Source: Nitrospirales bacterium
GTDB lineage: Bacteria; Nitrospirota; Nitrospiria; Nitrospirales; UBA8639
Direction: 5' to 3'
Assembly: GCA_963555755.3 (NCBI GenBank)
Contig: OY820905.2
Coordinates: forward strand, 544,001-608,000
DNA length: 64,000 nucleotides
The translations under genes were made by a program, and so were the position numbers. Below are positions 3,308 to 21,552 of the stretch, in pieces (within the stretch, counting starts at the first letter, position 1; the number at the start of each line of letters is the position of its first letter). Under the pieces are notes generated by a model. The model saw only the letters and a program-made list of their open reading frames with translations. It did no database searches and was not told where the DNA came from.

Positions 3308-3325
3308 CCTAAAAACGGCAGTTCC

Positions 3326-18479: not shown

Positions 18480-19272
18480 CCATGTAAATCCGAAAACCCA
18501 GAAACTCATTGGTAATTGGCCCCCCCATTCCTTTCCCTTCTTTGCCAATGCAGAGGAGATTCTTTCGGAGTTTGGTAGAATTGGAGCGTTTGCTGCGCAT
18601 CAGAGAATTTTACGGTCCGGTTTTCAAACGTATCGAATAAAGGACGCCTATGCCCCCGGACAATACCGGCATACCCCCATTTATCAGGAGTTTTATCACC
18701 CTCAACGAATTCAGTACTGTTTGCATTCTGGTTTGTTCGGTGATGCTACCAATACCATAGGGTTCCACCGCCAAAACAGAGACTTTTCCGGAGAAGACGT
18801 GAGGATAGTGGAATTACCGCGCTCGCATCTCGTGCGAGCGCACGGTAATGCCCAGCGTGGCTCGCACATGCAATCCCACCTCACCAGGATCAATGGTGCG
18901 GTGGAGGCGTTGAATCAGGGCGTGGTGGTGCTTTCCTCAAATGGCCGGATTGCGTGGATGACGACGGTCGCCCAACGTTTCTTGAAAACATTTTGGCCGG
19001 ACTGGAAACGACGGAAAGATTCCCTCCCCGCGCTTCTTGGTAATTGGGTCCACAGTCAACTGCAGCTCTTCGACGATCCTGATTATGCCCCTGGCATTCA
19101 CATGTCCATTACCATCGACCGGGGTCAGTACCGCCTACTCGTCCGGTTGGTGCCGCAAGACAACCAACACGTCTTGTTTTTGGAGAAGGAACCGATCGAC
19201 CTGCCGTTAGACCGTCTTAATCCCTACGATCTCACTTCCAGAGAGAAAGATGTGCTCGGCTGGGCTATTCAA
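18480..19272 (+). pseudogene. GAF/PAS-LuxR regulator, fragment 2 of 3
   Basis: Open frame 18481-19272: YQEFY, HR..RDFS.ED, GVVVL...GRI, LTSREKDVLGWAIQ (start of LuxR HTH). Confidence 0.85.
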
Positions 19273-19371
19273 CCTAGACATTATGTATTGACCTGCCCAA
19301 TCTTCAGGCACGTGGGGTAAGCTACGGGGGAATCACCCGGAGTTTACAACCACCATGAAGGAGGACAGGGC

Positions 19372-20496
19372 ATGAACCAGTTTCACAAGTTTGTTGGGTT
19401 GGACACACACAAGGACACGATTGCGGTGGCGGTGAGTGAGGCGAATGGGGGGCCCACCCGGTACTATGGTGAAATTTCAAACACGCCCAAGGCGCTGGCC
19501 AAGTTGGTCAAGACCCTGACCGCCCAAGGGGACGCGGTGTCATTTTGTTATGAGGCCGGCCCGTGTGGCTATGGGATCTATCGACAACTCACGGCGTTGG
19601 GCCAGGCTTGCGCGGTGGTGGCGCCGTCCCTGATCCCCACGAAACCGGGCGACCGAGTGAAGACGGATCGGCGCGACAGTGAATCGCTGTCCCGGTTGCA
19701 TCGGGCAGGCGAGCTCACAGCCGTCTGGGTGCCGGATCAGGAGCAGGAAGCGATGCGGGATCTCACGCGAGCGCGGGAAGATATGAAAGGGCTGGAACGG
19801 ATCACCAAACAACGGCTCAATGCGTTTCTGCTTCGGCATGGCCGCAACTATGATCGGGGAAAATGTCGTTGGACCCAGGCGCATAGCCGCTGGTTGGCAG
19901 GCCTGAAGTTTGAGAACACGGTGCAACAGATTGTCTTTCAAGAATATATAGAGGCGGTGAAGCAGGCCGCAGGCCGCGTGTCCGGGTTGGAACACGAGAT
20001 GGCGCAAGCGCTAAAGACCTGGGAGCTGGCCCCAATGGTCGAGGCCCTGATGGCCCTGCGCGGGGTGAAGCTGATCACCGCCATGACCGTGCTGGCAGAA
20101 CTGGGGGACCTCAGTCGTTTTACCTCCCCGTCGCAACTGATGGCCTATCTGGGGCTGGTGCCTCGTGAACACTCCAGTGGCCAGACCCGGCGGCGCGGCG
20201 GGATCACCAAGACGGGTAACGGCCATGTGCGGCGGGTGCTGGTCGAAGCCGCCTGGGGATACCGGTTCCCGGCTCGTAAGACTGCGCATCTGCAACGGCG
20301 GGCCACACAGACGTCCGCAGCCGTGCAGGCCATCGCCTGGAAAGCCCAGAAGCGATTGTGCGGGCGCTATCGGCATCTGCTGGCGGCCGGGAAACTCACG
20401 GTGCAGGCTTGTACGGCTGTGGCCCGGGAGTTGGCGGGGTTTATCTGGGCGATTGCGTGTGAAGTCCTGAACCAACCGGCTGTGAACACTCGGTAA
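19372..20496 (+). CDS. IS110-family DEDD recombinase/transposase
   Basis: VGLDTHK, YEAG, KTDRRDS (DEDD); AYLGLVPREHSSG and GITK.GN in the C-terminal domain. Confidence 0.95.
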   Translation: MNQFHKFVGLDTHKDTIAVAVSEANGGPTRYYGEISNTPKALAKLVKTLTAQGDAVSFCYEAGPCGYGIYRQLTALGQACAVVAPSLIPTKPGDRVKTDRRDSESLSRLHRAGELTAVWVPDQEQEAMRDLTRAREDMKGLERITKQRLNAFLLRHGRNYDRGKCRWTQAHSRWLAGLKFENTVQQIVFQEYIEAVKQAAGRVSGLEHEMAQALKTWELAPMVEALMALRGVKLITAMTVLAELGDLSRFTSPSQLMAYLGLVPREHSSGQTRRRGGITKTGNGHVRRVLVEAAWGYRFPARKTAHLQRRATQTSAAVQAIAWKAQKRLCGRYRHLLAAGKLTVQACTAVARELAGFIWAIACEVLNQPAVNTR

Positions 20497-20539
20497 GACC
20501 TGAGCGAACTGACTGGTTAGCACCACCATGCACACAAGG

Positions 20540-20755
20540 AATATCCAGCCAGTCTTTGGGCCAGGGCAGGGGCGGCCGGTGGGAGAATCCTCGGCGTTTC
20601 TATGAGGCGCTCAACAGAACTGAGACGACCCTCGATCCTAGAGAGAGGCAGCTCCACGACGAAGAGAGGTCAGGCGGTGTCGACCCGCGTATATCAGAGT
20701 GATCCACCGTCGTTGATTGCCACCCCTGCCCTGTGCCAAGGACTGGCTGGATAAA
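20540..20755 (+). ncRNA. Putative bridge/seek RNA of the IS1111-type element
   Basis: ~30-bp closing stem (20542-20576 with 20719-20753); loop segments CGTTTCTA (20595-20602) and CCTAGA (20637-20642) match the target; ATATCAGA (20691-20698) matches the donor junction. Confidence 0.75.
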
Positions 20756-20795
20756 GCCAGAACGGATGCGACATTGAACACTTGATTACCAATAG

Positions 20796-20801
20796 TTGAC
20801 A
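20796..20801 (+). promoter_or_regulatory. -35 box of the IS110 circle-junction promoter
   Basis: TTGACA; in the circle it lies exactly 17 bp from CATTAT (19279-19284). Confidence 0.65.
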
Positions 20802-20934
20802 GGTCAATACATATCAGAAACGGCAGTTGGGCGCAAAAAAGCCGTGTAAGATATTGGTGTGCATGGTGAAATACAAAAAGTCGTAGTCACCTCGGTGGTG
20901 ATAAGACATTTTTGTATTTTATCAGGTGCGCTTA

Positions 20935-21197
20935 GGGTCCGTCACGAAATAACCGGGACAATTGGGAGGCCCAGATTTGTGATCGGGGCAAGGCGCGACG
21001 AGGGAGCAGAGCGGGGCTCTGTGACCGAGGAGCAACGCCGCCCCGGGCCAAAGATGGGCCTCCCCGGAGGGCCGGACGCTTTTGGGCTCCGCCGGCGTCG
21101 CTCATCGCTTCCATACTCCCGGTATGCGCGCTCTTCGCTCCTTGGCTCGCTCCAAAATCGTCTCGGCCAATTGTCTCGGTTATTTCGTGACGGACCC
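20935..21197. mobile_element. MITE family C
   Basis: 31-bp TIR GGGTCCGTCACGAAATAACCG[G/A]GACAATTGG (1 mismatch); flanks TTA / TGA. Confidence 0.85.
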
Positions 21198-21246
21198 TGA
21201 GAGCTTGCGCGGACTTTTGTGATCCAATTGCTGTTTCTAGGTTCAA

Positions 21247-21396
21247 GGCAAGTCCAATCCCGAGATCGGTCAGATCCTCGGCACCAGCCCGTTGACCATC
21301 CAAAAACAGTTCGGCAGCATTTACCAAAAACTCGGTGTCGAAAATCGTGCGGCGGCAGTCGCCACGGCGCTAGAGATCATGCGGCTGGCAAGCTAA
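21247..21396 (+). pseudogene. GAF/PAS-LuxR regulator, fragment 3 of 3 (HTH C-terminus)
   Basis: GKSNPEIGQILGTSPLTIQKQFGSIYQKLGVENRAAA...*; in frame with fragment 2 after removing the insertion. Confidence 0.88.
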
Positions 21397-21552
21397 ATGA
21401 GGATGTCACTCAAAAGAATGGCCTGGATCCCCGCTTACTACCGCGGGGATGACGGTGCTATTTTCGGAGGGCAGACCGTACCTTTGCAGTTAGTACTGGC
21501 TCGACGGCCTTAAAGACTGTCGAGAAAAATTACAACTTCGCCAATCCTCGTC

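Follow-up and report, generated by a model that had tools for sequence, protein, structure and literature searches.

The window, as we call the whole 64,000-nucleotide stretch of DNA analysed here, contains an insertion sequence that is very probably an RNA-guided IS1111-type element reading the terminal repeat of a MITE through its own bridge/seekRNA. Four observations carry this reading: the anatomy of the element, its site specificity, the structural covariation of the RNA and the covariation of guides with targets.

The element and its insertion sites

The insertion sequence and its host MITE comprise the following features.
19278..20817, + strand: IS110-family, IS1111-type insertion sequence of 1540 bp, splitting the left MITE terminal repeat
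19276-19277 and 20816-20817, + strand: two copies of the core AG, placed by the family alignment
19282..19295, + strand: left subterminal inverted repeat, TATGTATTGACCTG, 13/14 bp
20800..20813, + strand: right subterminal inverted repeat, 13/14 bp
19372..20496, + strand: DEDD transposase/recombinase of 374 aa, with PF01548 and PF02371
19273..21241, + strand: host MITE, 429 bp without the insertion sequence, sitting in a LuxR-type regulator gene

The N-terminal DEDD/RuvC-like and C-terminal Transposase_20 domains are both present in the transposase, which matched PF01548 (E 3e-16) and PF02371 (E 3.8e-23) and scored 273 bits against NF033542 ("IS110 family RNA-guided transposase"; cut-off 140). 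The sequence GLVPREHSSG, starting at residue 261, represents the IS1111-group motif GL-P----S(t)G. Non-coding sequence of the element extends for 94 nt 5' and 322 nt 3' of the gene. When the 13-bp repeat is used and one core copy is put at the left, extensions of seven bases (AGACATT) on the left and three (ATC) on the right are obtained. Subterminal repeats of ~11-13 bp, 7-bp left and 3-bp right extensions, a downstream non-coding region and the GL-P----S(t)G motif are the IS1111 traits given in a published account (PMC11187229). The same account states a transposase length of 330-350 aa for the family, against 374 aa here; identity to the IS4321/IS5075 transposases is ~25%. Judged by its domains and anatomy, the element belongs to the IS110 family as an autonomous member of the IS1111 type. 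The IS1111-type identity assigned in the first-pass annotation is thus in agreement with domains, subterminal repeats, extensions and the long 3' non-coding region alike. A second, distant IS110-family gene with 33% identity is found in the same genome (G000:C1:386063-387001).

Scanning one genome per species yielded 79 related loci with 51-91% identity. A total of 83 rows were examined (the window, L012-L014 and L019-L097), of which 68 allowed the right end to be located. Among plasmid relatives whose host is named, the closest (47% identity) lies on Shigella pINV; it was left out of the comparison because it is unannotated and truncated by an IS3-family element. Among the relatives the left end is conserved as AG-ACAT.ATG.ATTGACCTG and the right end as CAGGTCAAT.CATATC-AG; the flanks vary by lineage. 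In this family alignment the dinucleotide common to both junctions is AG, or CT on the other strand, and CT is the core known for IS621 (PMC11208160). The boundary of the window copy can be drawn anywhere from 19276-20815 to 19279-20818, as AGA is repeated. The CT core on the other strand had been recognized at first pass and stands; the shared "AGA" given with it is replaced by AG, the third base appearing at the junctions because the target base after AG happens to be A. Excision of 19279-20818 does join CCTAGA to AACGGCAGTTGG and restores the 18-mer MITE repeat. L042 and L043 differ from their sisters L041 and L044 only in a right end that is longer by 77 bp; element sequence continues there beyond an early end-like ATATCAA, perhaps because part of the end has been duplicated.

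The host MITE bears 18-bp terminal repeats, CCTAGAAACGGCAGTTGG on the left and an intact near-complement on the right (21224-21241), and TTCAA is duplicated at both of its flanks (19268-19272 and 21242-21246). Allowing up to 3 mismatches, the 18-mer occurs 347 times in the 4.62-Mb genome, which corresponds to the ends of ~170 MITEs. The commonest size determined from paired ends is 163 bp (49 copies), and others measure 328, 429, 488, 589 and 772 bp; an exact 5-bp duplication, mostly TTNAA, flanks 77 of 125 small copies. The family also includes seven minimal 40-bp palindromes that run from repeat to repeat. The first 10 bases of the terminal repeat, CCTAGAAACG, are found 158 times in the genome, with 8.8 occurrences expected from composition. 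As many as 150 of these 158 sites fall in MITE ends free of the insertion sequence, 109 in the 'gcgcaaaa' end of the MITE and 34 in the other end type. The LuxR-type regulator gene is split by the MITE into 18721-19320 and 21247-21452, with the helix-turn-helix region on both sides. Neither half taken alone had a Pfam match; the gene is uninterrupted in a relative (contig from run X3).

The target had been labelled an IS1380-like terminal repeat in the first-pass annotation. A CC start and a 5-bp duplication would be compatible with the IS1380 family. The eight full IS1380-family copies resident in the genome (NF033539; 1587 bp; for example G000:C1:706518-707711) have terminal repeats CCCAAGATCCGCGATGG, which differ from the MITE repeat, and the label was dropped. 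No autonomous parent of the MITE was found among the 1.6-kb end pairs, the solitary ends and the IS1380-family copies of the genome. Of the ~1.6-kb pairs of MITE ends, at G000:C1:3591525-3593120 and 2032117-2033709, one has an IS1595-family transposase between its ends and the other contains a PIN/RHH pair; they may be nested insertions, or neighbouring MITE ends framing cargo. Other solitary ends adjoin host genes. A related repeat, CCTAAAAACGGCAGTT..., is present as two inverted ends at window positions 3308 and 18474, 15.2 kb apart and facing each other, and a second MITE family with a CCTAAAAACGGCAGTT-type variant repeat occurs elsewhere in the genome.

Three copies of the insertion sequence reside in the genome, identical at 100% over 1540 bp and with intact reading frames. 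The three share both their orientation and the exact base at which the MITE repeat is interrupted, and none lies at an unrelated sequence, as expected from the targeting first proposed. Their outer flanks differ, and so do their host MITEs, in sequence as well as in kind (163 bp, 429 bp and truncated). In other genomes, L022 (91% protein identity) and L012 (90%) meet the MITE repeat at the same left junction and in the same orientation as the window copy, making five of five insertions; the right junction, readable in the three genomic copies and L022, is likewise the same. The element lies 5 bp inside the repeat, leaving only 5-6 bp of MITE to its left. With 3 of ~153 suitable CCTAGAAACG-type sites occupied, its activity is low or recent. 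A solitary 38-bp fragment at G000:C1:2801318-2801355 has 92% identity to the right end and terminates in ATATCGG, as in L093.

The same distribution might arise if the insertion sequence had entered one MITE once and then spread passively, either with the MITE transposase or by homologous recombination between MITEs. The MITE family is clearly mobile, judging from its ~170 copies and the TTNAA duplications, and the insertion sequence is always found in the 'gcgcaaaa' end. That bias is nevertheless expected by chance, since 109 of the 150 free G-variant sites are of this end type, and we do not regard three out of three as a significant preference. The short MITE remnant left of the element makes homologous recombination implausible, and the variety of host MITEs carrying identical copies argues against MITE and insertion sequence moving as a unit. 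Moreover, relatives with other guides sit at sequences matching their own guides (see below). Passive spread is already largely refuted by these observations, and we give it almost no credence.

The structured RNA and its target guides

The 3' non-coding region contains the following elements of RNA structure.
20542..20753, + strand: structured region of the bridge/seekRNA (z-score -6.6; covariation)
20542-20576 with 20719-20753, + strand: long basal stem closing the RNA region
20589..20648, + strand: target-binding internal loop, from the comparative structure
20589-92 with 20645-48, + strand: outer stem, CCUC with GAGG, variable among relatives
20604-20633, + strand: inner hairpin, from the comparative structure
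20594..20602, + strand: guide 1, GCGUUUCUA, the complement of top-strand T-AG-AAACG, with 8 contiguous pairs with TAGAAACG
20636..20642, + strand: guide 2, UCCUAGA, equal to top-strand CCT-AG-A and therefore pairing with the bottom strand
20656..20713, + strand: donor-side multiloop, with a stem (20656-61 with 20708-13) and a hairpin (20674-88)

The presence of a structured RNA in this region, suspected from the single sequence, is confirmed by covariation among 38 relatives. In an alignment of 38 distinct right ends of at most 350 nt, 88.3% of the cells assigned to helices could pair, compared with 35.9-41.7% when the partners were slid by 1-3 columns. Compensatory changes were observed in 42 of 60 pairs, and the observed values were matched in none of 500 column shuffles. 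RNAalifold, applied independently to the same alignment, returned the same helices and an additional pairing of GUCA 20669-72 with UGAU 20700-03; it left 20594-20602 and 20636-20642 unpaired as the two sides of the internal loop. The structure model has a further helix of GGAG with CUCC, and the outer stem appears among the relatives as CCUC/GAGG, CCCU/AGGG, CCUU/AAGG and CCCA/UGGG. The minimum-energy fold of the single sequence was set aside in favour of the comparative structure: it pairs both guides together and hides the internal loop, being misled by the partial complementarity of the two guides. Searching 19000-21400 against Rfam (E up to 1) matched no family, so the RNA is defined solely through the alignment of this analysis. 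A profile search of the genome for orphan RNA copies returned only the three insertion sequence copies.

The internal loop matches both strands of the MITE repeat around the AG/CT core, as the first-pass annotation had proposed and as alignment and covariation bear out, and the guide match ends at the MITE terminus. The strings on which that proposal was built, GGCGTTTCTA (20593-20602), CCTAGA (20637-20642) and ATATCAGA (20691-20698), are located as described. The first of them is a guide by position and by complementarity to the target, except for G20593, which belongs to the conserved stem flank CCUCG. Guide 1 of the window ends in a distal G that pairs with nothing in the target, and guide 2 pairs just 3 bases beyond the core; through the identity of CCUAG(A) with CCT-AG-A, the two guides jointly specify CCTAGAAACG. 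When the 321-nt right end was shuffled, 31 of 2000 shuffles contained both an 8-nt complement and a 6-nt sense match spanning the core. The match in a single sequence is therefore only modestly beyond chance, and the weight of the argument falls on the comparative data.

For the comparison of guides with targets, 4 of the 68 right ends were dropped (flank <6 nt), leaving 64 rows with 46 unique combinations and 30 distinct guides. Across the 46 combinations, an average of 4.63 of the six variable bases of guide 1 agreed with the right flank, versus 2.06 after permutation (0 of 10000 permutations reaching the observed value). Eight combinations matched at all six positions, 22 at five, 7 at four and 9 at three. 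Reducing the set to one row per distinct guide gave 4.53 versus 2.05 (0/10000). The low scores of L052 and L078 reflect a one-column misalignment, and both match fully when read correctly; some of the other combinations with three matches may be decayed copies. Mismatches are commonly at the distal position, in the window as elsewhere, so guide 1 effectively reads T-AG and five bases. The base before the core also covaries: guides with CTA go with T, and CTT goes with A in L078 (L052, which has the same guide, is without a left flank). On the other side of the loop, agreement of guide 2 with the last flank base was seen in 43 of 44 combinations; for positions -4 to -2 the score was 1.75 matches out of 3, versus 0.92 after permutation (0/10000). 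L093 and L076 have CCA in place of CUA in guide 1. The right junction core of L093 is GG rather than AG; with its CCA guide, this core thus appears to go with the target guide and not with the donor loop.

These data also bear on the possibility that the protein or the subterminal repeats alone choose the target, the 3' structure being an mRNA stability, termination or regulatory element with incidental target matches. The shortness of the window matches (8 and 6 nt), modestly beyond chance as noted, and the absence of a left-end guide (see below) would be in keeping with such a scheme. It fails to account, however, for variable loop bases that follow the flanks over 30 distinct guides while the surrounding stems are conserved. 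In the IS1111-family elements ISEc11, ISPa11, ISKpn4 and ISPst6, moreover, experiments show that a seekRNA is required; ISEc11 and further IS1111 members also bind their RNA, and that of ISEc11 has been reprogrammed (Siddiquee et al. 2024, PMC11187229). Target choice without the RNA is accordingly very unlikely, and recognition through the two guides is the reading that we retain. With ~30 naturally reprogrammed guides on one conserved scaffold, the clade offers useful material on how IS1111-type bridge RNAs pair. The rules suggested are that one side of the loop contributes an effective 5 + 2 + 1 bases and the other 2-4 bases plus the core, with the distal position often unpaired.

Donor recognition and expression

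Two further features concern the donor side and the junction of the ends.
20691..20698, + strand: donor-loop segment, AUAUCAGA, consisting of ATATC as in the right IS end, AG as in the core and the first base of the left end
20796..20801, + strand: TTGACA, a -35 hexamer read from the sequence

The second loop had been described as identical to the circle junction, and its match to the right end and core is upheld: 64 of the 68 relatives keep ATATCAG in the loop, and the next base differs between lineages. L095 has ATAACAG at both the end and the loop, a compensatory change. L027, L031 and L035 (loop ATCTCAG) and L093 (end ATATCGG) are uncompensated. Covariation of the donor loop is thus thin, with one compensatory case against two uncompensated lineages. 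The loop matches the right end and core alone rather than both ends of the element. No complement of AGACAT was found in the RNA region by alignment of relatives and RNAalifold, in accord with the earlier remark that a left-end guide was not evident. The candidate GA(A/G)GUCA, complementary to AGACATCA at 6 of 8 positions, was rejected: it shows no covariation with the variable seventh left-end base, after the AG core, and RNAalifold pairs its GUCA with UGAU inside the RNA.

A donor-matching segment in a multiloop has been noted for many IS1111 orthologues by Durrant et al. (PMC11208160). For ISEc11, it is reported that an 82-nt RNA holding the identified target matches suffices and that excision needs intact target flanks (PMC11187229). 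The short RNA and the need for flanks fit a left end read via subterminal repeats and protein. This suggests that the left end of the present element, too, is probably recognized through subterminal repeats and protein rather than RNA. Some contigs of runs X2 and X8 share 20674-20704 exactly and have a different sequence upstream of window position 20674, which points to another related element that has this donor-loop segment in common with the window copy and is absent from the genome G000.

In an excised circle, TTGACA would stand 17 nt from CATTAT (19279-19284), and 38 relatives show no variation at the T, G, A, C and A of the hexamer. A junction promoter with its -35 hexamer in the right end is described for ISEc11 (PMC11187229). 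For this element we infer a circle, a promoter of the form TTGACA-17-CATTAT at its junction, binding of the RNA to the protein and a causal role of pairing. The element would be excised as a circle whose abutted ends create the promoter, which would drive the transposase gene together with the downstream non-coding region. The latter would fold into the bridge/seekRNA and bind the DEDD recombinase. One internal loop would then read the target on both strands around the AG (CT) core, GCGUUUCUA pairing with top-strand T-AG-AAACG and CCUAG(A) with the bottom strand of CCT-AG, and the multiloop segment AUAUCAG(A) would read the right end and core. As the guides jointly specify CCTAGAAACG, the element would land 5 bp inside the MITE repeat in one orientation.

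An element built as described could also be inactive here, its three copies being relics whose RNA is no longer made or used. The low occupancy of suitable sites points in this direction, and a search of the integrated copy for a sigma-70-type promoter found none. Only the circle form would be expected to have one, though, and the three copies have neither diverged from one another over 1540 bp nor lost their frames. Contigs from RNA libraries (X1, X2) cover 19994-20772, 20410-20703 and 20675-20784 free of mismatches, and their depth is greater over the 3' half and RNA region than over the 5' part of the element. Such contigs carry no strand, start or level and may include DNA carry-over, so they add a weak hint of activity. 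On balance we consider inactivity unlikely and favour a functional RNA-guided element.

A broader and decidedly tentative proposal is that the clade combines hybrid donor recognition, with the RNA reading the right end and core and the protein and subterminal repeats reading the left end, with the habit of a hyperparasite. By cutting the tip of the MITE repeat the element would immobilize the copies it enters, and the ~150 MITE ends would serve as safe landing sites. We regard this extension as possible but doubtful.

Relation to known systems

RNA guidance is an established mode of targeting for IS1111 and IS110 elements. ISEc11, ISPa11, ISKpn4 and ISPst6 share with the present element a DEDD transposase, subterminal repeats, 7-bp and 3-bp extensions and a downstream non-coding region. 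As in the window RNA, a complement of the top strand lies 5' of the bottom-strand match in this group, the two overlapping at the insertion point, and a -35 hexamer in the right end is ready for a junction promoter. The window element differs in its longer transposase (374 aa versus 330-350) and in its target sequence.

The first-pass annotation had considered the target class to be undescribed, which was overstated. IS4321/IS5075 target the terminal repeats of the Tn21 family (Partridge and Hall 2003), 20 of the 21 IS1111 copies of Coxiella burnetii lie in the MITE QMITE2 (Wachter et al. 2018, PMC5896051), and Durrant et al. (2024, PMC11208160) predicted bridge RNAs for 93% of IS1111 elements. 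IS4321/IS5075 are also IS1111-type, with the terminal inverted repeat of another transposon as their natural target. Theirs is a plasmid-borne Tn3-family transposon, whereas the window element addresses a non-autonomous MITE of 163-429 bp with ~150 free chromosomal sites. The Coxiella element likewise lands in an abundant MITE; its site in QMITE2, however, is an internal GTAG palindrome, and that of the window element is a terminal repeat, 5 bp from the tip. Our literature search, within the texts accessible, retrieved no account of a MITE terminal repeat serving as the target of an IS110-family element. Even so, the window element joins two known habits. It shows one mobile element taking another's terminal repeat as its address. 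It is a well-resolved natural example of RNA-guided recombination and leaves the current picture of the mechanism unchanged.

Similarities to IS621 of the IS110 group (PMC11208160) are the two-loop logic, the CT core common to target and donor and the reading of opposite strands by the two sides of a loop. In contrast to IS621, where the RNA is in the left end, the window RNA is in the right end and has its strand matches in the opposite order; its multiloop holds the donor-matching bases, with only one donor side evident. The window transposase matches the IS621 structure over residues 226-293 only (E 5e-7).
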